Source: Podarcis pityusensis
Taxonomy: Eukaryota
Assembly: GCA_964106645.2 (NCBI GenBank)
Contig: OZ067040.1
Strand: one strand, 5' to 3'
DNA length: 64,000 nt
Positions 6,101 through 47,813 of the stretch are shown piece by piece. Each line of letters begins with the position of its first letter. Within the stretch, counting starts at the first letter, position 1. Below the pieces are notes generated by a model that saw only the letters and a list, made by a program, of their open reading frames with translations, was not told where the DNA came from and ran no database searches. The position numbers and the translations under genes are program-made.

Positions 6101-6589
6101 GTTGCTGGAAGTAACAATGAGCAAGACTATTGCTCTGGACTCTAATTCTTCTGTGCCCTCAAATGCACTCAAAGAAAATGTTACCTTTTCAAAATACAAG
6201 TGGCTTTCCCATGTATTGCTAAAGACATAAGCTCAAGAGGTTACTGATGGAGGGCTGCACAATTTTCAGACTGCCAGAGCTCATAAACAACAAGCTCTTG
6301 TAATTAAATTCCTCCTCCTCTTTATAACAATGTTTTGGTGAGAGTTCAGCTTCCTTCCCCCCCCCCCCCGAGGTATGACATTTTCTCATAGTACACTCAA
6401 TTTTACCTTAATTTGTAGCGTAGAAGTCAGTCTGTAGCTGATGCTAAGTGATTAAAATGCCAGTTGTTTGGGATTTTGTACTGAAGACCCAAACATTTGT
6501 ACATGCGCATCATACAACAGCAAGGGCAATCTAACTTCTTTCATTGAACCTCTTTTGGTTTATTAATGATACAGAATCCAGTACTAAAG

Positions 6590-8669
6590 GTTTTTTTTTA
6601 AAATAATATTTATTGATAATTTCAGAATTACAAGAAAAATAAAAAACAAAAAACAACACTACAATACAAAAAAAGAAAACAATAAAAAAGAGAAAAGCAC
6701 AAAATATAAAAACCAATACAACAATACAGCAAAAGAAAGTAAAAAAGAAGAAAAAAAACACAAATCCCAAATTGCATATGCATAATTTCCATTTGCTTGT
6801 TTCATTGACCTCCTCACACCTCCGTTTTTGTGTTCTAGTTTAGTAATTATTTCAGCAAATTCTTTCCATCTTTCTCAATTTTTGTTATAAAATTTATCTT
6901 AACAATTTAACCTAATAATTAACTCAACAAATCCTTACCATCTTTCCCCATATTCTGTTATTCAGATTACCTTAATTTATTTAACCTTATCTTACCCCTA
7001 AGTACCTTAGAACTTAAATCTTAGTTTTCAAATATACATAGCTCCTGATATCATTTCTGCTAGAGTCGTATAGTTTCATTCCCACATTTTCCCTAATATT
7101 CATTAGCTGATTCTAAAATAAAAAATTTCCATTATAAATTCTCTTCCAATCATCATCCAGTGTCTCTTCTTCCTGGTCTCGGGTCATGTCAGTCCTTACT
7201 GTCCATTCCATCTAGTCCATCAACCTGGAAGCCTTATGTCCGAGGCCCTTAAATCTCTTCCATGTCCCTTCTGCAATTCTTCTTCATCTTGTTTGTGCTT
7301 GCCCTTTTCCTTGTCTTTTGTTGGTCTCTGTCTTAGTTTCTTTCCTTTCTCATTGAAGAGTAGGTCTCTGGGGGATTCCAACCCAAAATTGTCTCCATCA
7401 CCCTTCATCCAGCTCGCCCATTCCCCACAGTCCCACTCCCCACAGTCCTCGATATAATCCAAAATGTATTTAAAATCAAATTTCAAGGTCTCTCCAAAGC
7501 TAGGAACCTACTCATCTCCAGACTCCCCTTGGCCCACTCCAACTTCAATCTTCAATAACAGCGGTTTATGCTCCTGTAGGGCCTCGGGTCTCTCCATTTG
7601 TACTATTTGAGGTGCAGCAGCATCCTCCTCCATTGTCATCTGCACTTGCCCAGTCAGTACAGATTGATAGGTTGGTTCTTGGATGATTTCTGTATCAATG
7701 TTATTAACCACAACAGTCAAATCCATTTTCTCATTCATCAAGTCCATCTTCTCATGCATCTGTTCCAGCAAAGCATTTGTCTTGCATAAAGCAAGCACCC
7801 AGTCTTTCTCCCAGCTCATCTTTGTTCAAGGTCAGAAAAGACTGTTCCCACAGTCTTAATCTCACAGATGTTGGGTCTCAAATATGCTGCAGCAACAATT
7901 TAGCAAGCTCCCTCTAGAGGAGACAATCTACTTGTATCCATTTTTTTTTTTTGAAGACAGGAAAGTTACTTTCATTTTTCAGATATTTCAGATGTTTTTC
8001 AGGTATTTTGTTTCTTTAAAATGCAAAAGGCAACATTAGAATCAACTTGTTTCTCTTCATTAGCTATCTGTCAAAGTGTTACGTTCACAGTCAATGAACC
8101 TCTCCAACAGTTTCTGTCTCTGACACCCCGTTCCCAGGTTAGAGACGGTGGAAACTTATCCTTCTTCACTCCCTCTCCTGCTGGGGTTAAACAGAGTCCC
8201 CCCCCCTTTTCTCCTGCTTCCAAGGGGGGTTTCAGTGATTCTAAATGTAGGAAATTTAGTCTTTTTTAACAGCTTCCCGGCTTTAGCTTGCAAAATTTTT
8301 GCTTTAGTCTATATACAAAAAAGCGGAAGGCGGACTTCCTGTTTGCACCTTCCCGCTTCGATACCAAATTAATACAATTTCTTGATCCAATTTTCCGTTT
8401 CTACTCACAGGTACTTGTTTTAAGTCCAATTGTCCACAGGAAAAAGTCAGCGCTCTCTGGCAATGGTTGTGCGGCTTCACTCCGTGAAAGTAGCAGTCAG
8501 TTCGTAGCACCTCGCTTCTCACCCCACTTTGCTCCGGAGCCCCTAGATGGGATTCCCCGCGAGTAGGGGGGTGCTTCTGGTGCCCTGCCAAACCCCACGT
8601 TCCCAGGCTTCCTCCGCCTGACCCAGAAGTCCCAGAATCCAGTACTAAATGGCGCTGACCCGGAAGTCC
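6590..8669 (-). mobile_element. Non-autonomous L1-type retroelement, copy A (~2.1 kb)
   Basis: 18-bp TSD CAGAATCCAGTACTAAAG (6572-6589, 8670-8687). AATAAA and A-tail at the 6590 end; GC-rich 5' end starting GGACTTCCGGGTCAG. Colinear with 35325-37474. Confidence 0.85.
7220..7819 (-). pseudogene. ORF of non-autonomous L1-type copy A, broken by one in-frame TAG
   Basis: Track ORFs 7508-7819 and 7220-7486 share a frame and together match the 205-aa ORF at 36236-36853. Main differences: GAG>TAG at 7508-7510 and an 18-bp in-frame deletion. Confidence 0.75.
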
Positions 8670-8953
8670 CAGAATCCAGTACTAAAGTTATTTATGTCCA
8701 CACATACAAACACACACGTACACTTTATTCTGGAAAATATTTTCTTTACAGATATGCTGCTACTCTCTAAAAACTGGGATGAATGATTGGAGTTCAAATA
8801 TATATTTAAATAAACATATATGAGAATAACTTTCTGAAAGCATATTAGCCATTCTATACAATAGTAGCTGCCTAGAGAGTTTATAATGTACAAGTGGATT
8901 CAAATGTAAATAATAGGGGCAAATGTAAGTACAAAGCCTGCTTCAAGTGATTT

Positions 8954-9462
8954 TTGTTGTTTAGTCATTTAGTCGTGTCCGACTCTTCATGACCCCATGG
9001 ACCAGAGCACGCCAGGCACTCCTGTCTTCCACTGCCTCCCGCAGTTTGGTCAAACTCATGCTGGTAGCTTCGAGAACACTATCCAACCATCTCGTCCTCT
9101 GTTGTCCCCTTCTCCTTGTGCCCTCCATCTTTCCCAACATCAGGGTGTTTTCCAAGGAGTCTTCTCTTCTCATGAGGTGGCCAAAGTATTGGATCCTCAG
9201 CTTCACGATCTGTCCTTCCACTCAGGGCTGATTTCCTTCAGAATGGATAGGTTTGATCTTCTTGCAGTCCATGGAACTCTCAAGAGTCTCCTCCAGCACC
9301 ATAATTCAAAAGCATCAATTCTTCGGCGATCATCCTTCTTTATGGTCCAGCTTTCACTTCCATACATCACTACTGGGAAAACCATAGCTTTTACTATACG
9401 GACCTTTGTTGGCAAGGTGATGTCTCTACTTTTTAAGATGCTGTCTAGGTTTGTCATTGCTT
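8954..9462 (-). mobile_element. BovB (RTE) LINE, 5'-truncated
   Basis: RT C-terminus (DITLPTKVRIVKAMVFPVVMYGSESW...FELWCWRR), (CAA)n-type tail, TSD TTCAAGTGATTT (8942-8953, 9463-9474). Confidence 0.92.
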
Positions 9463-11444
9463 TTCAAGTGATTTAACCTTTTAAAATCTAAGAGCAGAAT
9501 GTTCTTTATTGTCCGTATGGAATTGTCTCCCCTGTGTCCTGTCCAGTCTGTAAGGGAGGTGGGAGACCACTTTCAGGCAGAGAGCCAGATCCAAAAGTAG
9601 CTAAACCTTCCAATCCAACTTCCATAGCAGATCTGATGCCTGTTACAAGCAGTATGGCTTGTATTGGCGCTAAATGCTGAATGCAAGCCACATCTGAAAA
9701 GGAATAATCAGGAGGTGCCTGACTGTTCCTTTGCAGTTGTCTGTCCTGGGCTTGATGTCCTATGTCATTACTTGAGTGGCCGGTGGGCATGGCCTAGTCA
9801 CACAGCCTTGTGTGCCTAACAGAACTGTCCTAAATGAACAACTGAATGAAGTAACTCATAGACATCCTTGTTACAAAATGCATATGATTTTCAATGTGAA
9901 GTTTGAGATGCTTTCAGTGTACTGAACTCCCTCTTTTATAATTTCTAACAATTATGACTAATGCATTGTCTGAAGCTCTGAAATCATTTTTGCTGATGTA
10001 GTTGTCAGTTATTTAAAAATAAAACTTCCCATTAACCTCCTGAGGATACAGCAGTCTAACTAGAAAGAATAATTTAAGTGTCACATTATCCATGCAGAAG
10101 ACTAGAGTACAGAATGTTTTGTCTTTCCCTTCAAAAATCTTTTTTTCAACATCTCAGGAGCAGCTAAGTTTGCCTCTGTTTCTGAAAACAGATGGGCTCA
10201 GATGGAATCACTAGAAAGCAGGGTGATTGCTGGGGTACTTGTGCCAATTTATTGTTTGGCTAGGAAAGCTGTTCCACTTTTAGTTCACTTGTCTTTGAAG
10301 ACTGCCAGCGAGATTAATTTCTGAAAAAACTGAAACTAGCAGGACACTCCAATGTCTTTTTAAAAGTTTCCAGCTCTTTTGGTTGCAGACAAAAGCATAA
10401 AATTATGACTTCAATAGGGCCTAATGGTTCAGAAAGCAAATAAAGGAACCTGTGTTTCTTTTAAAATCCATCTGGGTGATTATGAGGGATGGGAATAAAT
10501 TTCGAACACACAAGCTAACCATCTATTGCTTTACTGATGGTCAAGCAGGTCCCGGAACACTAATGTTCCATCAAGAACCCTCTTGTTCCTCTGATGAGGT
10601 TACCATGAACAAAAGGCTGTGGGTTTTGTTCAATACACGAAAGAGCCATCCAGTTTCCTGGCTGATTCAGGCTCCATAATTCCAAAACTTCCGCACATTT
10701 CCACGTTCTTTCTGTTGTTATTTGGAGAATAATCCTTCAAGTTTGAAAGGAAAGGAGAAGAAGCAGGCCGCCCCAATAATCTAACTCCAATGCTTACCCT
10801 ACACTCATACCCAAAACTTGCAGCAGAATGATGACCCACATGCTTACTTCAACATCTCTTCCCTAAATCATGGTGACTGGAGTGCACTGTGATTAAAAGT
10901 GGCACCAGTCCATCAAAATGAAAGGTATGCAAACCTCTCCATCCCCTTCGCTCTTGAGCTCTGGGTGTTTCCCCAGTCAGCTTGGTTTCGATTCACAAAA
11001 AAATTAAAGGTAGTGGGAAATGACTGCATTTAAGCTTATGAAAAAAGGAGGCAACTGAGAAGATTAGGTAGTCTCTGCTCTATCTCAATATGCCTTGTTA
11101 ATGGCACAATCTGACTTCGTAACCTGAAAAGCCACTCCAAATCAACCCTAATTGCCTGGTTATTTGGGGTACACAAACAGCCACTCCTGTTAATCACAGT
11201 CCTCAGGGACTGGGCAGAGATAGACGTCACCTGGAAGCAGCAATCAGCAGTGACTTGAAAGCAGATACCTGGACCAAAGGTGAAGTATGACAAGGAAAAG
11301 AAGCGGTAAGGCAGGAAGTTGACCAGATACATAAACTTCAGTACTATGGACAGCTCCTTATAAGGAAAAAACCACCACCCTGTTCTGTAAATCTATGGAG
11401 AAGAACATAGATAGGCCTGTGACATGTCAAAATACCATTCCCTT

Positions 11445-14700: not shown

Positions 14701-17649
14701 GGTTGACTGAAAGGAGACCATGCCAGAGCAATGAATCATGAAGATAAACAACAGGTGTCCTCTTGTGTTTCTACATGATTCCCGACTTCCCAGCCAAACC
14801 TTAGCCTTTTATCTCTCAGTGATTTCCATAGGCAAGAGTTCATTCTTCCACAGAAATTTAATGCTGCTTAAAATCCTACCAAACATTTGCCTGTCCCTTC
14901 ATAGGGAAAAGAGTCCACTGCGTATGTCTGGCCACAGCTGCTTCAGGATTGCTATCTTTCTCTCTGTGTGAAATTTCTTGCTTTTATTCAAAGACATAGA
15001 TGAGAGTGGCAAGATGCTTGATTTTCAGAAGGAAACAGAGCTGACCTAACTGTTAAAAGCCCTTCTCCACATACACAATGGTCACCACCAGTTTCCTAAG
15101 TAGCAAAGCTGGGTCCAGGAGTACCCAAGAGTGAACTCCTCTTCTGGCAGTCTTGAGCCCTCCAATAGCTTTACAGCAAAGGAAAATAATCTCAGAACGA
15201 CACAGCCAATCCAGTCGTGTGCTTCCTTAGCAAAAATCGCACCACTTTGCTTGGCTGCTCCACCATCCCTTCTTGGTTAACTGACTTCTTGATAGCAGAA
15301 TTTAACCCTTAAGTCACACATGGAATGATCTCAGCTGTTGCACTTCCAACATGATTGTTCCCAGCAACTTTACTGCTACCCACTGTTGCCAAGCTCCCTG
15401 TCTTGTTTTCTTCCTTCTCTACATTCATCCAAGTCACCTTTTGCTTCTAGCTACAAGAAACTAAAGAACACAGGGCTGCTCTCATGAAGACTATGATGAT
15501 GTTTGCAAGCTATTTGGACTTGGGACCAGCAATATTTAATAGTATTGCAGGATAAAAAATCGACTCCCCTTTCACCAAAAGCGAAAGTAAATTCTTCAGT
15601 GACTGCCAAACACAATTGCAACAAAGAATCCTATATTGGCAGGGCACATAGGAAATATATATAAAAAGAGCTTGTTTTATGTGCTGTCTGGGAGCTTGCA
15701 AGGCAGAAAAGCTTCTGCCTACAAAAGAATACAAATGCTCCAACAAAATAAATCAAAATACTTTTATGTAATTTCCTTCTTTTTAAAAAAAAATCCTCCA
15801 AGGTAGCATGTTAATGCAATGCATTAGAGCTTCCTGGCAACACACAAAAAAAATCATATAATTTACTCTGTACTTACTGCCAACAATAGTTCCAAAACCA
15901 TTGTGATGAATGGGTTCGTTTATTACAAGTGCTAGTGTTCTGGATTAAAGGAATGCCAAATGGGTCTAGGCATTTCAAGAGGAAATAGATATATATGATT
16001 TACAGCAGAAAGTTTGCTGTGGTACCTTGACTTCATATAATCGGAATAAAAGGGGGAGGGAGTCCACATGAAAGCCATTATGTAACAGTATCTTTCTTTA
16101 GTCAAGGAAACATGAACTAAAGCACAATATGCTTTTCATTTCTGTAGAAACAGTGAATACACTTGTTTAGACTGCAAAAGTGAGAAAGATAATGATGTGA
16201 AAACACATTTGTAACAGTTGCTGAACAAACTAGGTTTGGCACAGTTTTGTGTTATAGTCCCTTCTCAAGTAGTAGTGCACTGAGTAGACAAAAGAAAAGT
16301 ACTGTAATTGAAGCACTTAATGTACCTAAACACATTCTTTCCTTTTTAAGGGTCAGAGCACACATTTAACTGACTAAGGATATTAATCAACATAGTGGCT
16401 GGTTTACATTTATCTCCATTCTGGACAGCACAGTTTTCAGACTGTATGCCCTTTGGGGTAGAATTTCCTGTTTAAATTGTGTATGTAGCCATGTACGCTG
16501 ATGGTGCTATATAAATAAATGTTAACAACAACAACCACAGTAAGAACTACTTATCACATGGATCACTACTATCACACTGTGAGTTTCTATGCCAGGAGCA
16601 GGGAACCTCTGGCAGAAAGCACTCAACATGGCACCCCATTCCAAGCAGCCTGCCCATGTTAAGTGTAACTTTTGGTCCAGCAACAATTAATGCCATGCTA
16701 TGTCTTATTCAACCATGACCATAGAAGGAAAAATAGCTGTACTACAACATAGGACCCTTAAAGGAAAGGGGCAATAATTTAAGAGTGCAAGAATCCAGTT
16801 GGATCAGATGAGAGAGAGAGGTGGTGGGATATTTTTTTTCTATGCCAAAGTGTCACTTTTGAAAAAAAGACAGCTTGTGAGTATTATGTTAGAGCTTTAT
16901 TAAAAAATATGTTAAAAAATATATTAGAACTCATGCACTACCCAATGAAGTGGGTTGGCAGCATATTTAAGCTGGATGAATACATAATTAATTTATAGAA
17001 TTGAATACAGTTCTGGGGGACAGGTCTGTTGATGGGTATTAGCCTGCAGGCTAATGGAATAAATGGGAATGTGCCTCTGAATGCCAGTTGCTGGGAGGTA
17101 AACAATGAGAGAGGGTTTCCCAGAAGCATCTGCTTGGCCACTGTTGAAACACAATGCTAGAGTAGGTATCCAACAGGGTTTTGCTCAAGTTCTTTCTTAT
17201 ATCCATCTACTTCGGAATCCTTTCCTAAACACTGGCCAAACAGATGCTTCCAGGAACTCCACAACAAGCCATTCATGAAAGCAACACCCCCTCCTTGTTG
17301 TTTGTCCCCAGCATATGTTATTCAGCAGTGTTATTCAGTAGTATACAAAATAGCATTTAAAGGGCAAAATATTTAACTTAATGCAAACACATGCACACAA
17401 TCTAGTTTATGTGACTCACTTGTCTCTCTTTTCTTTCTGCCTTAGTATAGCTGACTACTCATGAGGTGGGGCATGTGGACACCATGCGACCAGCTGAAAT
17501 CTTGATCAATTTCCCTTCCAGGATACAAGTACCAAGATACTCTCAAAGCATGATGACACAGATTTGAGAGTAAAAACCTGATAGGGGGCATTGCCAGATT
17601 ATCAGAGGCCAGGTTAAGGAATTAAGACAGAAAGAGCAATCTAGAACTG

Positions 17650-18189
17650 TGAAGGGAAGTTTTCTTTCTGCAGTTCTCTCACTGTGAAGTTCTCTTTCTG
17701 CAGTTCTCTTACTGCACATAACTCTTGGATTCTGGGAAGTCTTGCTCATAATCTTTTCTCTGCTTCTGCACAAGAGTCTGAGAATGTTCTGAACAGTTCC
17801 CATTGAGTTCATGAAACAGTGTATCCTGACCTGTTCTTAATGCATTGCTGACCACATTTACGGAACGTGATTGTTGTATTCCTTCATGTTATGTTCTCTC
17901 AATATCAATCTTTAGTTATAATTTAATTAGGAGGATTCATGCCTGTCTAGCTCCAGCTCCGTTCCCAGTCTTTGAACTATCAGTGATTAATGTAATATGT
18001 TATTCCCGCCTTGTACCTATGTTAACCAATCAGCAACAAGATGCTTTGTGTTTGTATCAACCAATCAGCCACAAGCACACCTGTGGCAATGTTTGTAATA
18101 TTCAGTAAAAGAGAGTTCCCGGGGCTTGCCCCGGCAGACGCCTCTCCTTTGACACTCACCACTCGTCTGTCGTGATTTTCAACCCAACA
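17650..18189 (+). repeat. 5' LTR (540 bp)
   Basis: TGAAGG...CCCAACA. ~30-bp tandem repeat at the U3 start, two AACCAATCAGC CCAAT boxes, AGTAAA at 18104-18109. No difference from the 3' LTR seen by eye. Confidence 0.97.
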
Positions 18190-18191
18190 TC

Positions 18192-18208
18192 TGGTGACCC
18201 CTGACGTG
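18192..18208 (+). promoter_or_regulatory. Primer-binding site, tRNA-Trp-like
   Basis: TGGTGACCCCTGACGTG lies 2 nt after the LTR. It matches the ASLV tRNA-Trp PBS TGGTGACCCCGACGTGAT with one extra T. Confidence 0.8.
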
Positions 18209-18279
18209 CCAGATCCCTTACGCAGCCAAACCTCATACTTCACCCGACTGGAAAAGTCTCAGCGCGCTACTTCGTGAGT

Positions 18280-19725
18280 ATGGGAGGGGACTTGACTAAA
18301 TTCCAGAAAGAGCATGCTAAAGAATTGCTTTATTTAGTTAGACAGCAGGAGGTGGGTGTTAATATTTCCTTAAAAGAAATTGAACGATTGCTATGTGAGA
18401 TTAATTGCCAATGCTCCTTTTATCCTGAGGCTGGTTCCTTGGAGGTAGAGACTTGGCAAAAGATCGGAAAGACCCTGTTTGCTGAACCTAGGGCTCCGAT
18501 TCATTGTCTGCTCACTTGGCAGAAATGTGCTGATGCCGTTGCTAAATTACCACAGGCGTCTCGCTCGCCACCAGCACTTTTCGCCATCGCAGACAATCCC
18601 CCCCCTTACCCGAAACTTTTACCTCCTTCTCCCAGCCAATCCCTCCCTGCGTCTCATCCTCCTCAGCCTGATTCCTCCCCCCCCATCCCTCCTCCTCCTG
18701 CCACAGCCCCTGTTTGCTCTATAGGAGCTGTGCGCGCTGCGCTCTCTCTGGCAAGGCAGAAAGGGCTCCTGTCCTTAGAGGAGGAGTCTGAGTGGCCAGG
18801 TGAAATGCCATCTGCTTTCCCTATCTCTTATTCAAACCCTGGAACTGCTCAACAGCAGATTTATTATGAATCGCTTCCTTATTCTGTAATGAGGGAATTA
18901 AGGAAAGCCATTGCTGATTCTGGTCTGAAATCCTCTTATGTGACGGGAATGCTAGAGAGCATAGCAACTGGTTACATTATGCTACCTCAGGACTGGAAAG
19001 ACCTGATGCGCATGCTTTTGTCCCCTGCTCAGTATGTGGTGTTTGAGAGTGAATTTAAACATAGCGCTTCAGCCCTGTCTGATCCGCAACATACTGCCAA
19101 TGAACTTTATGGCGCTGGTCAGTTTGCTGATATAACTGCCCAAGCAACACTGACACCTGTACATTTTGTTCGCACCGCGACCTGTGTACAACGCGCCTTT
19201 CGGAAAGTCCCTGTTTCTGGGCAACCGCTGAGCTCCTTTGTAAATATTAAGCAACAGCATTCGGAGCCATACCATCAGTTTATAGATAGATTGAAAGAAT
19301 CAGTCACTAGGCAGATTGATAACACCACTGCTCAAAATGAATTGATGAAAAAATTGGCCTTTGAAAACGCAAACACTGATTGCAAGAAAGCTTTGCAGTC
19401 AATCATACATCGCCCTAAATATGAACTGGCCGATATGATTCAAGCTTGTGCGGATGTCGGTAGCCAGAGCCATGCGATGTCTTTGCTTGCCGGCGCAATC
19501 CAAGCAACCTCTAAGCCTACTGGTAACTGCTTTAATTGCAAGCGCCCAGGCCATTTTGCCAAGCAATGCAGAGCCCCTGGCGGGGGGGCACACAAGGATG
19601 GTGCTGCCTCTAAGGCTAAACCTTCTAAAAAGTGCCCGAAATGTGGCAAAGGCTATCATTGGGCTAATCAATGCCGGAGTTCGGGAAACTGCATTACGGC
19701 CTCTCTCTCGGGCCAGGGCAATTAG
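18280..19725 (+). CDS. gag: Gag polyprotein (481 aa), betaretrovirus-like
   Basis: Met-Gly start, PPPY late domain, MHR (IKQQHSEPYHQFIDRL), and two CCHC knuckles (CFNCKRPGHFAKQC, CPKCGKGYHWANQC). Splice-donor-like GTGAGT immediately upstream (18274-18279). Confidence 0.95.
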   Translation: MGGDLTKFQKEHAKELLYLVRQQEVGVNISLKEIERLLCEINCQCSFYPEAGSLEVETWQKIGKTLFAEPRAPIHCLLTWQKCADAVAKLPQASRSPPALFAIADNPPPYPKLLPPSPSQSLPASHPPQPDSSPPIPPPPATAPVCSIGAVRAALSLARQKGLLSLEEESEWPGEMPSAFPISYSNPGTAQQQIYYESLPYSVMRELRKAIADSGLKSSYVTGMLESIATGYIMLPQDWKDLMRMLLSPAQYVVFESEFKHSASALSDPQHTANELYGAGQFADITAQATLTPVHFVRTATCVQRAFRKVPVSGQPLSSFVNIKQQHSEPYHQFIDRLKESVTRQIDNTTAQNELMKKLAFENANTDCKKALQSIIHRPKYELADMIQACADVGSQSHAMSLLAGAIQATSKPTGNCFNCKRPGHFAKQCRAPGGGAHKDGAASKAKPSKKCPKCGKGYHWANQCRSSGNCITASLSGQGN

Positions 19726-19730
19726 AGAGA
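19683..19730 (+). promoter_or_regulatory. -1 ribosomal frameshift signal (G GGA AAC plus predicted pseudoknot)
   Basis: Heptamer in gag register at 19683-19689; pro is in the -1 frame. Stems GGCC/GGCC and TCTCTCT/AGAGAGA lie downstream. Confidence 0.8.
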
Positions 19731-20453
19731 TTTCCACCTTTAATTTCTGCTGCTGCAAACTTTTCAAAAAACACACCCTCTGAATTTGCCATTGATTTGA
19801 TCAATCAAGAGACCAAAGACTCTGTTTTACCTGGTGAAATTGTGCTTATGCCCACTCAATTGGCAGGTCCCCTGCCTCCTAAAGTCGCAGGTTTAATTTT
19901 ACCCAAATTTTCTGCGGCAAAGGAAGGAATCCAGGTTATTCCTGGAGTTCTGGATCCTGACTATGTAGGCACAATAATGGTTCAACTCTGGAGCCATATG
20001 CCCATGCAATTAAAAAAGGGTGAGTCTTGGGCGCATTTGGTGGTGCTCCCTTCTCATCCTACTGCTTCTATTATGGATACTAATTTGCACGAGCTCTCTT
20101 CTTTCCCTCCACAGCTGTTAGCTGTAGTCCAGAGGATTGGTGAGAAGAAACTTCTTCGTAAGTATAAAATCAATGGTATTGTGCTGGAAGGCTTGATTGA
20201 CACAGGCGCAGACGTTTCTGTAATTTCTAGTAGTTGCTGGGACCCCACGTGGCCCCTTGAGTCTGCCTCTGCTGTCTGGGGTGTGGGTGGCCCCCAAACC
20301 TCTTCCAAAAGCGTACAGTGGCTGCCTGTTTCTCTGCCTGATAGCTCTGAAACCATTGCTTACATCCAGCCCTGTGTGCTGAAAATCCACCTCAATCTGT
20401 GGGGAAGAGACTTACTACAGCAATTACAAGCTACCATTCAATTTAATGAGTAA
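19683..20453 (+). CDS. pro: dUTPase-like domain plus aspartic protease (pro), expressed by frameshift
   Basis: GVLDPDYVGTI (dUTPase motif 3), LIDTGADVSVI (catalytic DTG) and NLWGRDLL. The frame is open to the TAA at 20451-20453. Confidence 0.93.
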   Translation, partial: GKLHYGLSLGPGQLERFPPLISAAANFSKNTPSEFAIDLINQETKDSVLPGEIVLMPTQLAGPLPPKVAGLILPKFSAAKEGIQVIPGVLDPDYVGTIMVQLWSHMPMQLKKGESWAHLVVLPSHPTASIMDTNLHELSSFPPQLLAVVQRIGEKKLLRKYKINGIVLEGLIDTGADVSVISSSCWDPTWPLESASAVWGVGGPQTSSKSVQWLPVSLPDSSETIAYIQPCVLKIHLNLWGRDLLQQLQATIQFNE

Positions 20454-20495
20454 GCTTGCACTTCCCCTCAACTGGAAATCTTCTGGTCGTGTCCT

Positions 20496-21241
20496 GGCTA
20501 TACGTTTAATCACATTCCAGCAAACATCAGCCATGGCACACCTTGCTGTTTAAGCTGTTTGTCCATCATTTTATCGCTGCAATATTTAATTGACTAATGA
20601 TTGTGATGCTTTTGTCTCTCTTCTCAGTAGGTCTGAATATATCTCTTTAGCTGTTTCTCTCTTAGGAGTCCCTGGATTGGCTGTACGGAATCGAATGAAC
20701 ATTATTTCTTTAGCTCATTATGCAGCAAAAACCCTGAATTTTACTTCACAACCTCTTCACCTTTTGAATAAAGAACAGAGTGGACTATATAATGGACTTT
20801 TACGAAATCGTGCTGCTATCACTATTTGCTGATACTTCATCATTATGGCTGTGAACAAGTGAATGACATGTGTTGTTTCAATATTACTGACAATTCAAGA
20901 GCCATTCAAAGTCAAATCCCTCATTTGCAAAATCTTACACATCACATTAAACAGGACATTGGTTTTCCTGGCCTCTGGGATTACACATTAAACAGGACAT
21001 TGATTTTCCTGGCCTCTGGGATTCTTTCACCCAGTGGCTTACCGCTTGGTTGCCAAACTTGAATTGGCTTCGTAATCTCTTTCAATATGCTATTTTTATA
21101 ATTTGTATTCTTATTTTACTATGCTGTTTCCTTCAATGCGTTCCTAGCCTCCTGAGTCTTTTCTCTCGGCTTCTCTCCCCCCCTCCACCACCCAGTAAAC
21201 TCCTTGCTGCTTACATTGCGAAATGGCAACACCAACAGTAA
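20496..21241 (+). pseudogene. env: env remnant (SU C-terminus and TM), ASLV-like gamma-type TM
   Basis: ISD-like LRNRAAI|DYLL is restored by adding one base at 20820/20821. CX6CC motif CEQVNDMCCFNITD and membrane anchor YAIFIICILILLCCFLQC. A ~41-bp tandem duplication lies at ~20943-21023. Confidence 0.88.
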
Positions 21242-21407
21242 ACCTTAGGGGAGATGTGGGCGGATTTATTTTGGGCATGCGCTGGCAAACCACGTATCCT
21301 GAAGTATTTTTGCCCCATCGACCCTGGCAGGCTTATTTCGGGCATTCGCTGGCACACCACTAATCCCGAAGTATTTTTGCCTTATCTACCTAGAACGCCT
21401 CGCAAAC

Positions 21408-21426
21408 AAGAAAAGAAAGGGGGAGA
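21408..21426 (+). promoter_or_regulatory. Polypurine tract
   Basis: AAGAAAAGAAAGGGGGAGA immediately before the 3' LTR. Confidence 0.92.
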
Positions 21427-21966
21427 TGAAGGGAAGTTTTCTTTCTGCAGTTCTCTCACTGTGAAGTTCTCTTTCTGCAGTTCTCTTACTGCACATAACT
21501 CTTGGATTCTGGGAAGTCTTGCTCATAATCTTTTCTCTGCTTCTGCACAAGAGTCTGAGAATGTTCTGAACAGTTCCCATTGAGTTCATGAAACAGTGTA
21601 TCCTGACCTGTTCTTAATGCATTGCTGACCACATTTACGGAACGTGATTGTTGTATTCCTTCATGTTATGTTCTCTCAATATCAATCTTTAGTTATAATT
21701 TAATTAGGAGGATTCATGCCTGTCTAGCTCCAGCTCCGTTCCCAGTCTTTGAACTATCAGTGATTAATGTAATATGTTATTCCCGCCTTGTACCTATGTT
21801 AACCAATCAGCAACAAGATGCTTTGTGTTTGTATCAACCAATCAGCCACAAGCACACCTGTGGCAATGTTTGTAATATTCAGTAAAAGAGAGTTCCCGGG
21901 GCTTGCCCCGGCAGACGCCTCTCCTTTGACACTCACCACTCGTCTGTCGTGATTTTCAACCCAACA
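21427..21966 (+). repeat. 3' LTR (540 bp)
   Basis: Direct repeat of 17650-18189, followed by TSD GAACTG. Confidence 0.97.
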
Positions 21967-22194
21967 GAACTGAAAGCAGGTAAGTGGTGCAAAAGGAGTA
22001 GAATAGCCTAAAAGTGGATTGTATCCAAAGTAGTTCCATCAGCACAATGATTTACACTTGCACAACATAACTTTTCCACATCTCCTCCCTCTTTGCCCCC
22101 CAAATCTGTTCTGGGTCCCCTCCCCCATCCTCTGGAGCAGATTTGGGGAGACAACATTCCACTGCACAAGTATAAATCCTTCCGCTAATGAATT

Positions 22195-24874: not shown

Positions 24875-25074
24875 NNNNNNNNNNNNNNNNNNNNNNNNNN
24901 NNNNNNNNNNNNNNNNNNNNNNNNNNNNNNNNNNNNNNNNNNNNNNNNNNNNNNNNNNNNNNNNNNNNNNNNNNNNNNNNNNNNNNNNNNNNNNNNNNNN
25001 NNNNNNNNNNNNNNNNNNNNNNNNNNNNNNNNNNNNNNNNNNNNNNNNNNNNNNNNNNNNNNNNNNNNNNNNNN
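24875..25074. other. Assembly gap (200 N)
   Basis: Run of N. Confidence 1.
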
Positions 25075-25505: not shown

Positions 25506-26422
25506 TTGTTGTTTAGTCGTTTAGTCGTGTCCGACTCTTCGTGACCCCATGGACCAGCGCATACCAGGCACTCCTGTCTTCCACTGCCTCCCGCAGTTTG
25601 GTCAAACTCATGTTGGTAGCTTTGAGAACACTGTCCAACCTGTTGGGATTCGTTAGATCCCAACACAACCATCTCGTCCTCTGTTGTCCCCTTCTCCTTG
25701 TGCCCTCAATCTTTTCCAACATCAGGGTCTTTTCCAGGGAGTCTTCTCTTCTCATGTGGTGGCCATATTGGAGCCTCAGCTTCACGACCTGTCCTTCCAG
25801 TGAGCACTCAGGGCTGATTTCCTTAAGAATGGATAGGTTTGATCTTCTTGCAGTCCATGGGACTCTCAAGAGTCTCCTCCAGCACCATAATTCAAAAGCA
25901 TCAATTCTTCGACAATCAGCCTTCTTTATGCTCCAGCTCTCACTTCCATACATCACTACTGGGAAAACCATAGCTTTAACTATACGGACCTTTGTCGTCA
26001 AGGTGATGTCTCTGCTTTTTAAGATGCTGTCTAGGTTTGTCATTGCTTTTCTCCCAAGAAGCAGGCGTCTTTTAATTTCGTGACTGCTGTCACCATCTGC
26101 AGTGATCATGGAGCCCAGGAAAGTAAAATCTTTCACTGCCTCCATTTCTTCCCCTTCTATTTGCCAGGAAGTGATGGGACCAGTGGCCATGATCTTAGTT
26201 TTTTTGATGTTGACCTTCAGACCATATTTTGCACTCTCGTCTTTCAACCTTATTAAAAGGTTCTTTAATTCCTCCTCACTTTCTGCCATCAAGGTTGTGT
26301 CATCTGCATATCTGAGGTTGTTGATATTTCTTCTGGCAATCTTAATTCCAGCTTGGGATTCATCCAGCCCAGTCTTTAGCATGATGAATTCTGCATATAG
26401 ATTAAATAAGCAGGGAGACAAT
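25506..26422 (-). mobile_element. BovB (RTE) LINE, RT C-terminal part
   Basis: 302-aa open frame with LSPCLFNLY and NNLRYADDTTL RT motifs; (CAA)n-type tail. Confidence 0.95.
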
Positions 26423-26425
26423 ATA

Positions 26426-26615
26426 CAGTGGTACCTCGGGTTAAGTACTTAATTCGTTCTGGAGGTCCATTCTTAACCTGAAACTGTTCTTAACCTGAAG
26501 CACCACTTTAGCTAATGGGGCCTCCTGCTGCCGCCGCACCGCCGGAGCACTATTTCTGTTCTTATCCTGAAGCAAAGTTCTTAACCCTGTTCTTATCCTG
26601 AAGCAAAGTTCTTAA
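26426..26615. mobile_element. Truncated mariner-type MITE inserted in BovB
   Basis: TA followed by CAGTGGTACCTCGGGTTAAG, same family as 22740. The right TIR is missing and the copy ends in a ~28-bp duplication. Confidence 0.8.
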
Positions 26616-29596: not shown

Positions 29597-29736
29597 CTCT
29601 TCCTTGGTCTTTTTGGATATAACTCGTAGCCAATCACCGATCATGCTCAGGACAGCAGCAAAATATGCAAGGCCTACAAGGATCCAGAACCATACCATTG
29701 GTTTGTAGACATCAGAATATTCGATATCTGACCCCC
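29597..29736 (-). CDS. KCNK2: KCNK2 coding exon (P2-M4 loop and M4), 140 bp; not in the ORF track
   Basis: Reads (G)[48 protein letters not shown] at 29737-29738, GT(AAGG) at 29595-29596; phase joins both neighbouring exons. Confidence 0.96.
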
Positions 29737-32700
29737 CTGAAAAGACAAAGTTCCTTTTTTTAAATAAAAAAAATGCACATAAATCTAGCTTTCCAATTTA
29801 TACTGATCATACTTTGTTTACTTTTCATTCCAATTCATGAAAAATATTGGCCATTCCTTTTCTATGAACTTATCATGAACTTTGCAGAACAATAACTTTA
29901 GTAGAAAGAAATTCAACCATGAAGCATACAAATGAAAGCCCCAATGAGGCCAAAATTCAGCCAACTTTCTTACCAAAAGCAGGTAACTTGTAAGTTTCAT
30001 TTATTTTTGTGACAATGGCATGCACAATCTTAAATCTTTCCCACTGAACTCAGTTGCCTGGTTTGAAAATAATACTAAATGATGGTTTAACATGGCATGT
30101 GTAAGCTTTAAAGCTCCCTTTTCTCTCTCCAGCTTTGGCATGGCTGAGAGAAGACCAGAAACATATTAAACTCACCAAGAGTTCCTAATTTCATCTGGAT
30201 TCAGGGGAATTCTGCCAAGTTTAAGCTCCAGTTTAGTGAACAGACTGGAATCATGAACCACAAGTGGACCCTAATTTGTTTGTACAAACCACAGTTTTAA
30301 CTAGCTAGTGTTCCTGAGGTTTACACAATGAGGAAGTCGTTAGTTTTAAAGTGCAAATGAAGGTTTCCACTCTCCTCCTGGCCACAAGATGGTCTTGTGA
30401 GGGCTCATTCATATAATTCTAAACTATTATTTAGCAAAAAGCTCAATTAAACTTTAAAATAGCTGGATTGCATCCACAATTCCCTCCCCCTCCTTTTGTT
30501 AAGCAGGCCACAGAATCATAGGTAAACTGTGCAACTTGGGTTGCAATCCTATGCTTCAATGCAACTAAATTCTGAGTAGATGTGATACAACTGTACTGTA
30601 AAATATTTGAATTCAGACTATTTTTGTATTAAACATGTGAAAAACAGTTTCCATATTCCACATACAGACTCATGTGTCCATTAACATTCACTTATTACCA
30701 CTGAAACCAATGGATTTTAGCAGTAATGAATTAAAAGCTGGAATCACAAAGGCTGCTGTCTTACACACATTCAGCTTGCTCCAAAAACCAGTTTGGCTAC
30801 ATCTGAATACTTGATACAACTACTCAATGCTGGCCCATTCCATACACATTACAGCAGTCTTTAAAAATCTATGGAAAGCAGTTTTACCAAAAATGAAAAG
30901 AAAAAGAAAGAAGAACAAAAGAAAAACGCTCCAGTTCTACACTGCAGATAATGGTTGTTAAAGTACTACTATTTGGCTTAAAAGAACTGAGAACCACTGA
31001 CAAATAATAAAAGGCAAATACCTGAAATTTCTGGGGGCTAACATATCAATCCACTATACAGCATGGTTCAAAAGTATGGTATACTAGTATACATTTGTTG
31101 TATACAGATTAAAAGTGAAACGAAAATGACAATGGAAGTTTGTTTTAAGGCTTTGTGCATTATAAGCAGGAGGCTACCTGAAGATCCCTTATATCTCTGC
31201 CCAATCATTGAGATCTTCGGGGCAGTCTGATCTTATAGTTTTCATTTCTTTTTATTCTTTGTATTGTACTTTTGTAAACAGCCTACAAACTATTATAGTT
31301 AAGTGGCATATAAAATGTTTGAATGAATGAATTAATTAATTAAATAGTCGCTACTCTGGAATACATAACCCATTTTAGTACTTCTGTTTTACATTTGCAA
31401 TATTCAGGGTGACCATTCAGTGAGGGTTTTATATTGACTGAAGCATTTATGGCCAGGGATAAGAAGAAATGATGTCATAGTCTAGCACTGGGTCTGAATT
31501 CATCACTACCCAACCCTAGGAGGCAACGCTATGCTTACCAGGTGGGAATTCCAAAGAAGAAGCAAAAAGTTGACTAAGGATACAGGGTTTTATTCAAACG
31601 GGGCAGCAAAGGAGGCCAGGTATTGGTAGCGAGTTCAGAAAGCTCAGGATGAAATGTATATGAGCACCAGGAATCCATTCTGAGTGCAAGGGCTCACTGG
31701 AGAGTTACAGAAGATAAAACCAGGAATTCAGCAAGGGCTGGCACAGTTTCATAAATTAAACTGGGGTAGGGAGCCTCATCTAGGCTTCCTAGGGATCCAG
31801 TGCAAACAAAAAGGTAGGTGCCATTTTAATATTTTGGATATCAGAAATGCCTAAGGCCAACCTTGACACCAGGACTGGCAAAGCTTTGAATACAATTCTT
31901 TAAAAAAAATGCTAAGAAGGTTCACCTCAAGTTTTGCACTTTTGACTGATGTGAATTTTTGCACACCTCCATATTTTCTAAGTTAAGCATTGTCACCTAG
32001 TGGTAGGCCAAGCTGACTGCAATGACAGGCACTTAATGTTCCAGGCATTTTGAGGTTACGTGAGGATAAACCTGTCGTGAGTATTTAACACTGCTTTCAA
32101 TTACAGGGTAAGCAATTTCATTGACTCCAGTACATTAGTGAAATTGTTTAAGTCTTCCTCTTAACATTCTTAGGCCACTGCTGTAGTCTGCAGCCAGCTG
32201 GCAGCTCTATCATTAACACCAACCGAATGTAGGCATTGCAGAAGAACTTTAAAGCAGAGGCAAATGATCTGCAGCTAGCCTTCAAGATGTGAACAAAATA
32301 TATTGTTGTACAATACTTTGCACATTTCCCTTAAAATGCTACATTTGCTAAGGAAACAATCTTAGTAAAGACCTAGCAAGCTGAACTTAGGGGTGGCTGC
32401 AACACTTAAAATTTTAGAAGGACCCAGGGATCTTTACTATGTTCTACTAAGCAAAGCCTCAGGTCTAAAGAGCCTCAGAAATTAAATTAAGAATCTGTGT
32501 CACACTGCTGTTATTCTAGGCAAGGCCAGATTATCAATGGTGCAGTTGGAGCAATTGCACGAGGGTCCTGCCTGTAAGGGGGTTCACGCTATCATCTTTC
32601 ATTGGGGGTGGGGGAACACGTCTGTTGGAATTCCAGGAAGAATATTAGGAAGCAAAGCATTTGTTCAAAGTATTCATTCAACTTGTTTTTATTATTGCTT

Positions 32701-35324: not shown

Positions 35325-37474
35325 ACTTCCGGGTCAGTGCCATCGGTGAATGGCGGAGTTCCTCCGACCGGAGGAACTAGCTCCATGAAAACTGGGTCTT
35401 CCCGCCGCAGCGAAGGCGGGGACCCGCTAGAAATCCCAGGCGGAGGAAGCCTGGGAACGTGGGGTTCGGCAGGGCACCAGAAGCACGCCCCCTACTCACC
35501 GGGAACCCCTTTTTGGGGCACCGGATCGAAGCGGGGTGAGCGGCGCGGTGCTGCGAACTGATTGCTACTTTCACGGAGTGAAGCCGCACAGCCATTGCCG
35601 GAGAGCGCTGACTTTTTCCTGTGGACAATTGGATTTAAAACAGGTACCCGTGAGTAGAAACGGAAAATTAGATCAAGAAATATCTTAATTTGGCATCAAA
35701 GCGGGAAGGTTCAAAACAGGAAGTCCGCCTTCCGCTTTTTGTATATAGACTAAAGCAAAAACTTCGTAAGCTAAAGCCTGGAAAGCTGTCAAAAAAGTCT
35801 AAATTTCCTTCATTCAGAACTACTGAAACACCCTTGGAAGCAGGAGAAAAGGGGGGGGGAATTTTGTTTAACCCCTGCAGGAGAGGGAGTGAGAAGGAAG
35901 AGTTTCCACCGTCTCTAACCTGGGCACGGGGTGTCAGAGACAGAAACTGTAGGTTCATTGACTGTGAATGGAATATTTTGGCAGATAGTTAAAGAAGAGA
36001 AACAAGCTGATTCCAATGTTGCCTTTTGCATCTTAAAGAAACAAAATATCCAAAAAATATCTGAAAAATGAAAGTAATTTTCCTTTGTTGGACTTGCCTT
36101 AAAAAAAAAAATGGATACAAATAGAAATTGTCTCCTCTAGAGGGAGCTTGTTAAATTGTTGCAGCAGTATACTTGAGGACTCAACAGCTGTGAGATTAAG
36201 ACCGTGGGAACAGTCTTTTCTGACCTTGCCTAAAGATGAGCTGGGAGGAAGATTGGGTGCTTGCCTTATGCAAGACAAGTGCCCTGTTGCAACAGATGCA
36301 TGAGAAGATGGACTTGATGAATGAAAAAATGGATTTGACTGTTGTGGTTAATAACTGTGGACAAACAGGGAACATTGATACAGAAATTATTCAGGGACCA
36401 ACTCATGAAGCTGTACTGACTGGGCAAGAACAGAAGATAATGGAGGAGGATGCGGTTGCACCTCAAATAATACAAATGGAGAGACCCGAGGCCCTACAGG
36501 AGCATAAGCTGCTGTCATTGAAGATTGAAGTTGGAATGGGCCAGGGGGAGTCTGGTGCTGAGGAGGTTCCTAACTTTGGAGAGACCTTGAAATATGTTTT
36601 TAAATACTTTTTGGATTTTATCGAGGACTGTGGGGAGTGGGACTCTGGGGAATGGGTGGGTCTGATGAAGGGAGATGGAGACAAATCTGGGTTGGAACCC
36701 CCCAGACAACTACTCCTCAATGAGAAAGGAAAGGAATTAAGAAAGAGACCAACAAAAGACAAGGAAAAGGGCAAGTATAAACAAGAAGAAGAAGAAATGC
36801 AGAAGGGACATGGAAGAGACTTAAGGGCCTCGGACATAAGGCTTCCAGGTTGATGGACTAGATGGATTGGACAGTAAGGACTGACACGATCCGAGACCAG
36901 GAAGATGAGACGTTGGATGAAGATTGGAAGAAAATTTATAAAGGAAACTTTTTATTTAGGGAATTAGTTAAAAATTAATGAATATTAGGGAAAATGTTGG
37001 AATGAAACTATATGACTCTAGCAGAAGTGATATCAGGAGTTATGTATATTTGAAAACTAAGATTTAAGCTTTAAGGTATTTTAGGGTAAGATAAGGTTAA
37101 ATAAATTAAGGTAATTTGAATAACAGAATATGGGGAAAGATGGTAAGGATTTGCTGAGCTAATTATTAAGTTAAACTGTCAAGATAAATTTTTTAACAAA
37201 AATTGAGAAAGATGGAAAGAATTTGCTGAAATAACTAATTAAACTAGAATACAAAAAGGGAGGTGTGAGGAGGTCAATGAAACAAGCAAATGGAAGTTAT
37301 AGATATGTAATTTGGGATCTATGTTGTTTTCTTTTTTCTTTTGTTTTCCATTTTTCTTTTTATTTTTTTGTTATATTGTTGTTGTTGTTTTCTATGTATT
37401 GTAGTGTTGTTTTTAATTTTTCTTTTTTCTTTATAACTTTGAAACTACTAATAAATATTATTTTAAAAAACAAA
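35325..37474 (+). mobile_element. Non-autonomous L1-type retroelement, copy B (~2.15 kb, apparently full length)
   Basis: TSD CAAAAGGCAACGTGGAGAG (35306-35324, 37475-37493). CpG-rich 5' end (G)ACTTCCGGGTCAG, AATAAA and A-tail. 3' UTR shared with the L1 fragment at 47336. Confidence 0.88.
36236..36853 (+). CDS. 205-aa ORF of the non-autonomous element (possibly derived from L1 ORF1)
   Basis: Open frame, also preserved in copy A apart from one stop. The N-terminus is heptad-like. ORF1 origin is an inference. Confidence 0.5.
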   Translation: MSWEEDWVLALCKTSALLQQMHEKMDLMNEKMDLTVVVNNCGQTGNIDTEIIQGPTHEAVLTGQEQKIMEEDAVAPQIIQMERPEALQEHKLLSLKIEVGMGQGESGAEEVPNFGETLKYVFKYFLDFIEDCGEWDSGEWVGLMKGDGDKSGLEPPRQLLLNEKGKELRKRPTKDKEKGKYKQEEEEMQKGHGRDLRASDIRLPG

Positions 37475-42919: not shown

Positions 42920-44266
42920 TAGATAGCAGTATAGTTAGCAGCAAAATCCATATGAAGCTGCCACTGAATCAAGGCTATTGGTTCATTTAGTTCAGTATTG
43001 TTTTTACTGACCGGATTTCAGGCAAGGAATCTCTCTCTGCCCTCTCTGGAGATCCCTGGGATTGAAGCTGGGAGCTGTTACATGCAAAGCAGATGGTCTG
43101 CCACTGAGCCACAGAGAGAATCCCAATGTACGGAGGTCTACATCAGGATATTTTTTTAAAAATTAGTCTTTTCTTGATATGACACTAAAACTGTATGAAA
43201 TTTTTTTGCATCAAGTGGTCCATGAAGTGGAAAATGTGCAAAAAATTATACTAACAGAAATTACTAACATACTCTATGTTCTAGTCAATGTTCTACAGTT
43301 AAGTGAGCCTTTGCACATAATGTTCCTACTGTAAACATAACCAGGGTAAGCATTTCATTGCATAAAAGCAAGATAAAAATACCAGTTCTATGGCTTTCAA
43401 TAATATACCAGTTTTGATAGAACACCAGCCAGGAGAATAGATGCCTTTGGGAATGATTTATGCTTCCTTCTATGTTGGTTTTATCGACATAACCATACCA
43501 TGCTCCATTCTTGTCTATGAGGATCACAGTTTTTTGAGCATGGAAATAGAATCTCATTGTCATTTTTGTATAATATATGCATATGAAAGCAGATAAAGGA
43601 ATCAAGTTTTTCATGCATGTTTCATACAAGAAGAAAATGACAGCAATAGAACATTTTCACATTTTAAGACATACACATTTTAGTAGTCGAGTATGAGCCT
43701 ATATAGATGAAAACATTATGACATATTCTCATATGTCAGAGTCTATATTTCAAAAGCCTTTCAGGTCCTTTTGATAATGTTTTACAGAGATAAATGAGGC
43801 AGTTCGTTGGTTGTATTTTGCTGCTGATAGCCTGGTATCCAATATTTTAATGTTTTTCTTATTTTGTTTGTTTGTTTGTTTGTTTATTACATTTGTATAG
43901 TGCCTTTCATTCGTAGAGCTCAGGACGGTTCGCAGCATAAAAATACAAGATAACACCACAACATACATTTCTTAGTTGTTGTGGCTGTATATTCCATGTT
44001 ACAATCTGTAAATCACACTGATTTTTCTTTTATATAAAGAGTGGTATATAAATGAAATAACAATTTAGTAAATAAATAAGACACTATACTGCTTGGAGGT
44101 TGTTGGGTTTGTTTGTTTGTTTGTTTGTTTGTTTGTTTGTTTGTTGTTTACTAACAAGCAGTACATAAATATTAAGGAATAAAATAAATAAATAGTGTAC
44201 ACATCTCTGTATATTTTTAAAAAGCTGAAACAGCAGACTTTAGTAAAAAAATTATAAAAAACTTAC

Positions 44267-44453
44267 CTGCAACGTAGTCACCAAACCCAATCGTTGATAG
44301 GGTGATAACTACAAAATATATTGCATCTAGTGTGTCCCAGTCTTCTATGTGCTTGAATATGACTGCAGGGAGAGCAACAAACAGCACACAACCAAACAGT
44401 ATGAATATTATTGTCGATATGATGCGAATCTTTGTCTGACTCACATTCCATTT
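44267..44453 (-). CDS. KCNK2: KCNK2 coding exon (M3, pore helix 2, TIGFGD filter), 187 bp
   Basis: [62 protein letters not shown](G). AG at 44454-44455, GTAAGT donor at 44261-44266. Confidence 0.97.
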
Positions 44454-47335: not shown

Positions 47336-47813
47336 CCAGGGAGAAGAGTTGGTGGAAGAAGATTGGAAGAAATTTAAAGTTTATTTACAGAAACATTGTA
47401 AAATTAAGGAATGTTAGAAGGATGTTGGAATGAAATAATGCGGTTTTAGCAGAAATGCTATAAAGGATTAAGGAAAAATAGATTGCTAAATGGTGAAGGA
47501 GGGAAAGTAAAGTTACATTATATTAAGATAGAATAGAGGACAAAAACTGGAAAAGATGGAAAGGATTTGCTGAAATAGTTAATTGAACTAGAATACAAAA
47601 AAGGGAGGTGTGAGGAGGTCAAGGAAATAAGCAAATGAAAGATAAGTTATGGGAAGATTTATTGTATTTTTTTCTTTTTTCTCTCTTTTTTTCTTGTTTC
47701 TTTTCTTTTTAATATCGTGATGTGATGTTTTGTATTTCTTAAATATGCTGTTTTTTAATTCTTTCTTTTTGTAACACTTTAAAACTCAATAAATATTACT
47801 TTTTTAAAAAAGA
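47336..47813 (+). mobile_element. 5'-truncated L1 (probable ORF2 C-terminus and 3' UTR)
   Basis: TSD AAGAAATCAGTGCATGA (47319-47335, 47814-47830). Reads DQGEELVEEDWKKFKVYLQKHCKIKEC*; ends in AATAAA and an A-tail. Confidence 0.82.

Follow-up and report, generated by a model that had tools for sequence, protein, structure and literature searches.

A very young provirus with open gag and pro, a broken env and no pol in the lizard Podarcis pityusensis

We analysed a stretch of 64,000 nucleotides from the lizard Podarcis pityusensis (GCA_964106645.2, contig OZ067040.1), referred to as the window; all coordinates are positions in it. An endogenous retrovirus (ERV) of about 4.3 kb occupies positions 17650-21966 on the plus strand. 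Its two long terminal repeats (LTRs) are identical at 540/540 positions, and the identity ends exactly at the terminal TG and CA. The same 6 bp, GAACTG, stand on both sides as a target-site duplication (TSD); the chance of this for a given 6-mer is about 1 in 4,000 by arithmetic. An earlier note, made from the letters of this DNA, had described identical LTRs and a perfect TSD, and the alignment bears out both. With 0/540 differences, the insertion is younger than about 0.9-2.8 million years, if each site is assumed to change at 3 to 1 × 10−9 per year. The Y.DD, LPQG and integrase-start motifs were absent from all six reading frames of the provirus. The element is a real provirus, a very young integrase-made insertion of a genome without reverse transcriptase (RT) or integrase. 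Its features are listed here.

17644-17649, plus: left TSD, 6 bp
17650-18189, plus: 5′ LTR, 540 bp, TG...CA, with a 30-bp tandem repeat at the start of U3
18026, 18061 and 18104, plus: putative 5′ LTR motifs, CCAAT (18026, 18061) and AGTAAA as candidate poly(A) signal (18104)
18192-18210, plus: primer-binding site (PBS), 2 nt past the 5′ LTR, from observed position and sequence
18274-18279, plus: candidate major splice donor just 5′ of the gag ATG, a consensus match only
18280-19725, plus: gag, ATG at 18280, stop at 19725, 481 aa, open
19668-20453, plus: pro, open, −1 to gag, with a dUTPase-like domain and a retroviral aspartic protease
19683-19729, plus: −1 frameshift signal, GGGAAAC at 19683-19689 in the gag frame and a possible H-type pseudoknot at 19698-19729
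20446-20481, plus: RT stub in the +1 frame to pro; its ATG (20446) overlaps the last pro codons and stop
20478-20490 (approximate), plus: junction of a large deletion, by which RT, RNase H, integrase and most of the surface subunit (SU) of env were lost
20479-21241, plus: env remnant, the end of SU and an avian-leukosis-type transmembrane subunit (TM, CX6CC) with membrane anchor and tail still open
20943-21023, plus: 41-nt tandem duplication in env, two copies 98% identical
21259-21390, plus: two 65-nt direct repeats (twin hairpins) between the env stop and the polypurine tract, a candidate RNA export or packaging element
21408-21426, plus: polypurine tract (PPT), preceding the 3′ LTR
21427-21966, plus: 3′ LTR, identical to the 5′ LTR
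21967-21972, plus: right TSD

Coding regions and cis signals

The identity of the LTRs is that of the assembled sequence, and the window is a scaffold whose sole run of N (200 N, 24875-25074) lies 2.9 kb outside the provirus. An assembly, polishing or gene-conversion artefact could make an older element, decayed in place, look young. The perfect TSD speaks against this. So does the lesion-free gag-pro, with two private changes in 549 codons, which is unlike long neutral residence. CpG is also less depleted in gag (0.51) and the LTR (0.39) than in the flanks (0.14, 0.27), though pro stands at 0.24. We regard the artefact as very unlikely. No further provirus copy or solo LTR was found among the self-matches of the window.

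A domain search assigned p10 matrix, the N and C domains of p24 and two zinc knuckles to Gag. Its N-terminus has an MGxxxT myristoylation-type motif, and a PPPY late domain is present at residue 107; both are also found in most of the named reptile Gag relatives. Because these two features are kept, Gag does not appear to have been visibly turned into an intracellular-type Gag.

The aspartic protease (about 20160-20440) contains DTG and GRDLL and is not followed by a G-patch. The pro frame opens with a dUTPase-like domain (about 19800-20060), a feature missing from the earlier note. This domain aligns to the enzyme of Mason-Pfizer monkey virus (M-PMV), and its catalytic motifs are altered (degenerate). 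These motifs, like DTG and GRDLL, are given their usual roles here. Since relatives carry identical changes, the altered motifs are a trait of the family. Across eight cleanly aligned relatives the domain differs at only 0-4 of 73-76 residues, which may reflect a non-enzymatic role or simple youth. Figures of 20-24% for this region in P0004, P0015 and P0025 were dropped as splice artefacts of the gene models. We also rejected the pro stop as a lesion of this copy: P0017, P0041 and P0044 end at the same residue.

A possible 11-pair H-type pseudoknot begins 8 nt past GGGAAAC, at a score that 63 of 3,144 internal positions equal. The plain fold of the frameshift stretch is no better than its shuffles (z −0.13), and structural support for the pseudoknot is modest. 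With that reservation, the open 481-codon gag, the open pro and the in-frame heptamer agree with what had been described before.

The PBS is one that we take to resemble, imperfectly, the tRNA-Trp sites of avian leukosis viruses. The leader fold was not significant (z 0.91). The candidate poly(A) signal in the LTR is AGTAAA rather than AATAAA, and the only AATAAA on the viral strand lies inside env (20767). Near the 3′ end, the twin hairpins fold far better than shuffled sequence (z −6.3; none of 200 shuffles as stable). Between the two repeats all 22 of 22 pairs are kept, with four one-sided changes and one two-sided change. Rfam gave no match for them: none in the window reached the gathering score, and two in the provirus were at chance level. 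They stand where, as we assume, some simple retroviruses carry RNA export elements.

The pro/pol/env junction and the env remnant

The stub was identified through P0025, a pol-bearing Podarcis lilfordi gene model, whose RT start it matches at 20/24 residues. The last identical residues are WKS (about 20481), some 30 nt beyond the stop of pro, and three mismatches follow. Because of this, the residues SGRV most likely come from env in a different frame, which leaves a stub of about 27 nt counted from its first Leu. An RT-start-like stub of about 40 bp (20455-20493) had been proposed in the earlier note. Its nature is supported by P0025 and its length is not. The frame of the stub is +1 to pro and not −1, and P0025 agrees.

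P0025 has the same run of residues across the end of pro into RT, in the same +1 relation. Judged from the codons, its two differences upstream of the Met could be silent in the pro frame. The provirus thus shares the +1 relation between pro and pol with at least one copy that still bears pol. In the pro frame, no canonical slippery heptamer stands within 400 nt of the stop, and folds at the pro/pol junction are not significant (z 0.25 and −1.32). A search for longer pro-containing proteins found no in-frame Pro-Pol relative and gave only the spliced models P0025 and P0027 (weak). Class II ERVs of birds and pythons have −1,−1 or 0,−1 frames, −1,−1 being the norm (PMC3482500; papers are cited by such numbers throughout). 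The +1 relation may be either an unusual family route to Pol or a shared defect, in which case P0025 would be no competent helper. An unusual route in the lizard family (reinitiation, a +1 shift or a separate mRNA) seems to us unlikely, because the basis is this copy and one gene model, both possibly descended from a broken ancestor.

The TM part of env matches avian sarcoma/leukosis virus (ASLV) TM structures 5h9c and 4jpr (E about 5e-6). The first TM piece gave only a weak match in the PDB (E 0.13), and the SU-end piece gave no meaningful match in Pfam, PDB or Atlas. The SU end was assigned from P0004 and P0025, and from what we take to be the form of ASLV SU. Four lesions break this remnant. 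A short deletion with a frame break lies at the SU end (about 20565-20575), where P0004 and P0025 have extra residues, including a basic cleavage motif. Further on come a stop (20587-20589), another frame break (near 20815-20825) and the 41-nt duplication. The count is four lesions in about 750 nt of env versus none in about 2,170 nt of gag-pro (p about 0.004 under uniform placement). The decay of env noted earlier is thus confirmed, with at least four breaks.

As a group, the internal lesions predate the insertion, because they cannot accumulate in place while 540 LTR positions stay identical. The earlier claim that the lesions are older than the insertion stands in this collective sense and fails for any single lesion; pol may have been lost at or after the last reverse transcription. 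One such course is that pol was removed after integration, by a chromosomal deletion at this locus, with the env lesions inherited. LTR identity only bounds the age, and the bound leaves time enough for one deletion. It would have to be a large deletion, made in a short time and ending just past the pro stop, and pol is absent from sibling gene models too. We consider this quite unlikely.

Relatives and origin of the defective genome

A Gag search gave 40 matches among 8,000 scored candidates. The closest named matches are gene models of P. lilfordi (81-99%) and a single one of P. muralis (78%). Next, at 43-57%, come proteins from tortoise, anole, agamid, amphisbaenian and caecilian. Another Gag, 48% identical, is filed under the tick Nuttalliella namaqua (P0009). 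It may stem from a lizard blood meal, if we are right about the host habit of this tick, and would then hint at a related circulating virus or at host DNA. For pro we covered the best 150 of 782 matches; the seven new ones at 90% identity or more were used together with P0001 and P0015, and the remaining 141 distant rows were left out.

Pieces of pol are present in four P. lilfordi models with Gag identities of 92-96%: RT in P0004 and P0025, RNase H in P0024 and integrase in P0027. The best match of the P0025 RT is the polymerase 7sr6 (E 2e-63, versus 1e-31 for a lentiviral RT), which we take to be that of HERV-K. These comparisons suggest that the provirus belongs to a multi-copy class II family with betaretrovirus-like gag, dUTPase-like domain, pro and pol and an alpharetrovirus-like env. 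It has several betaretrovirus-like traits, namely a separate pro frame reached by a −1 frameshift, two nucleocapsid zinc knuckles and a dUTPase domain at the start of pro. It departs from them in the +1 frame of the pol stub and the lack of a canonical slippery site for it. Mammalian-type betaretroviruses have a G-patch after the protease and a lysine tRNA primer; here there is no G-patch, and the PBS looks Trp-like by our assumption. Gag and pro are not in one frame, as they are in Alpharetrovirus, and the TM is of the ASLV type with CX6CC. Avian class II ERVs likewise are without a G-patch (PMC3482500). The same layout is found in ERV-AB-Mun of caecilians, with a separate pro frame, class II pol and alpharetrovirus-type env (PMC12690878). 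The likeness to the lizard family is one of architecture only, with a caecilian Gag among the matches at 43%; ERV-AB-Mun is intact, whereas the lizard provirus lacks pol and has a broken env.

No account of this Podarcis family, or of an ERV subfamily with only gag and pro, was found among the matches listed (in one case 20 of 5,006) from the literature outside subscription journals. The genomes screened in PMC10435555 include that of P. muralis, which occurs in no other supplement file searched (12/14 files covered). Alpha-like env genes are widespread in reptiles, and Podarcis rows in the supplement of PMC13568524 may or may not belong to the present family. Bacterial and archaeal genomes were scanned as well, and none of the 65 pattern matches was confirmed.

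We placed the copies on a capsid tree of 146 columns and 15 rows. The window provirus forms a clade with P0015, P0019 and P0001 (support 96/93). These three gene models are free of pol sequence, and the clade includes none of the four pol-bearing ones. The three lie on different contigs (59 Mb, 10.6 kb and 137 Mb), and none of 18 relatives matches the window outside the provirus. Differences between the window and P0019 are few in the capsid (1/146) and the dUTPase-like part (2/76) and more frequent in env (4/40). Two env residues are common to P0019 and the window, against P0004 and P0025. Residue changes private to the window number 2/549 codons in gag and pro versus 2/65 in env (Fisher p 0.058), or 2/415 versus 2/37 where a clade member covers the position (p 0.035). 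This count trims edges and leaves out the env stop and the SU-end changes.

We give about even chances to the reading that an already pol-less template was mobilised in trans, with RT and integrase from a pol-positive relative. The position of the break just past the pro stop and the retention of the cis signals and Gag assembly motifs count in its favour, together with the clade. The earlier note had the defective genome copied by a helper. A young insertion without RT or integrase, and the existence of pol-bearing relatives, agree with this; identical LTRs do not prove that the RNA template was pol-less.

Several observations weigh against a spreading pol-less lineage. No fully intact helper was found among the relatives, and the sole readable pro/pol junction, that of P0025, is in the +1 frame. 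A spliced gene model without pol does not mean pol-less DNA, and four further models without pol fall outside the clade. On the tree the pol label is unclustered, with 4 changes against a shuffled mean of 3.6 (500/500 shuffles as low). P0001 has a seven-residue frame disturbance inside the capsid, and gag may therefore be broken in one member of the clade. The test on private changes rests on four changes. Env looks decayed in pol-bearing relatives too, and the open gag-pro may be merely inherited. Finally, a search with the junction peptide had six candidates, none of which scored. The earlier note had proposed looking for the same pol/env junction elsewhere; at the peptide level no second copy was found, in a search so insensitive that P0025, which holds part of the peptide, was also missed. 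Support for the lineage is circumstantial.

An alternative that we hold possible but doubtful is a provirus that was dead on arrival. An env-decayed, pol-positive parent would have retrotransposed in cis, and a template jump in the last reverse transcription would have removed pol. The open gag-pro would then reflect only the need of the parent and the short time since. All four env-containing models (P0004, P0019, P0025 and P0046, two of them pol-bearing) have their ends within the TM ectodomain, and the same four-residue env deletion is found in P0025 and P0046; such endings may also be annotation artefacts rather than true stops, which tells against the alternative. Retrotransposition by way of env loss, with gag-pol kept, has been described (PMC4643047). 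Identical LTRs and a TSD would be seen under both readings, and the absence of a junction copy, in the insensitive peptide search, also fits. Set against these points, the three nearest relatives are all without pol in their models. Moreover, few random deletions would begin so close to the end of pro (within about 30 nt of its stop), a stretch that we estimate at about 1-2% of a pol-length target. P0046 combines a window-like end of Gag with a P0025-like env bearing the same four-residue deletion, a mosaic that suggests recombination among copies.

The same decay of env in pol-bearing relatives bears on the earlier suggestion that Gag and protease were selectively retained. An open gag-pro beside a dead env is expected of any env-less retrotransposing parent; therefore it is no proof of selection after the loss of pol, and the loss of env does not point to selection on a pol-less form. 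That selection actively kept gag-pro in the pol-less state is, in our judgement, doubtful, and a Gag-plus-protease satellite is plausible but unproven. It is extremely unlikely that the host retained the locus because Gag or Gag-Pro interferes with related viruses, in the manner of Fv1 or the transdominant Gag of enJSRV. The open gag-pro and intact LTR would suit such a role. Lesions older than so young an insertion, however, cannot be explained by host selection, and siblings at other loci point to spread at the level of the element.

Under trans-mobilisation the following course, read from anatomy, can be proposed. Env would have begun to decay in the family while copies still held pol. One copy would then have lost the segment from RT through most of SU, with a break about 30 nt past the pro stop and gag and pro left whole. 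Its 5′ LTR would drive unspliced RNA, whose export the twin hairpin at the 3′ end may aid, and this RNA would yield Gag and, via the −1 frameshift, Gag-Pro. Gag would prefer its own RNA for packaging (cis preference) and co-assemble with a Pol-containing polyprotein of the helper, and its own protease could keep maturation from dilution. Helper RT would prime at the PBS and PPT, and helper integrase would make the 6-bp TSD.

The provirus has the traits of trans-complemented non-autonomous ERVs, with no RT or integrase, with LTRs, PBS and PPT kept and with an integrase-type TSD. It works like an ERV of this known kind and is most likely a defective ERV mobilised in trans; a place in such a subfamily is plausible. 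In EAV-HP of the chicken, the element of the blue-egg insertions, a pol domain is lacking, LTRs are identical, separate TSDs mark independent sites and a helper was inferred (PMC3747184, PMC4607243). EAV-HP resembles the lizard provirus in the missing pol, the identical LTRs and the avian-leukosis-type env; it has one predicted protein with gag and env matches, whereas the lizard provirus has an open gag, a separate frameshifted pro and a broken env. The mouse IAP 1-delta-1 element is likewise a class II deletion derivative. Its own Gag-Pol fusion aids mobilisation in cis (PMC7411935, PMC1331978) and it needs Gag and Pol in trans, whereas Gag and protease are whole in the lizard provirus. Cis preference in RNA packaging has been described for IAP and MusD (PMC1331978). 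Cattle ERVK[2-1-LTR] D-type, ETn/MusD and recKoRV are also defective forms mobilised in trans (PMC10924933). The cattle form has no intact open reading frame (ORF) and a swapped central segment; the lizard provirus has a plain deletion and two open ORFs.

Internal deletions are also shared in SERV-K/MER11 of macaques, a young class II family like the present one, in which 60 proviruses share pol-env deletions and 32 share pro-pol deletions (PMC11379458). Open ORFs there number 28 for gag, 13 for pro and 6 for pol. Going by the published coordinates, the pol-env deletion there begins late in pol (nt 6233), unlike the present one, and the part of PMC11379458 that we cite mentions no selection on gag-pro. 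Shared deletions have been described for canid ERV-Fc as well (PMC6407205). Plant TR-GAG elements are short non-autonomous LTR elements that keep Gag and lack enzymes (PMC4350172). They are derived from Copia or Gypsy and were selected for having no protease match, whereas the lizard element is a retrovirus with a protease and an env relic.

The use of a complete relative's enzymes is thus known, and the described trans-mobilised cases keep no genes or only a fused remnant; keeping exactly gag and pro would be an unusual version. From such a lineage one could tell the viral functions worth keeping in cis from those that a relative can supply. It has been proposed that ERV families are driven extinct by defective members that replicate better than their helpers (PMC10924933), and RT-based screens such as PMC10435555 would miss pol-less elements. 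We see only a slim chance that both stronger claims hold together, namely a selected Gag-plus-protease satellite that borrows only Pol and a Pol made by a route that is not known from class II retroviruses (+1 frame, AUG over the pro stop). A separately made Pol would be a shareable product, which would explain why a parasite of Pol alone works. Should the junction prove unique, the provirus would be an ordinary one, young and defective, of a reptile class II family that has been little described.

Host gene and other features of the window

The minus-strand exon at 44265-44453 matches KCNK2 (TREK-1; E 1e-35), and a further exon lies near 45.8 kb. Two more exons flank the provirus.

29597-29738 (approximate), minus: KCNK2 exon on one side of the host intron; the gene was named from exon 44265-44453
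1980-2297, minus: last coding exon of KCNK2, on the other side of the intron, which we take to encode the C-terminus

The provirus thus lies antisense in the last KCNK2 intron, and its insertion there may be polymorphic. On the host-sense strand it carries three AATAAA motifs (18334, 18865 and 21270), which could affect termination of the KCNK2 transcript.

Positions 6591-8620 and 35437-37473 are inverted copies of a repeat of about 2 kb, at about 90% identity, with a third fragment at 47422-47644. A 209-codon ORF within it (36224-36853) has no Pfam match; the repeat is possibly the 5′ part of a long interspersed nuclear element (LINE). A LINE RT fragment (Pfam RVT_1, E 1e-12) adjoins the 200-N gap at 25513-26448 on the minus strand and has a related copy at 8947-9476. 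Several short repeats in the window resemble what we take to be squamate short interspersed nuclear elements (SINEs).

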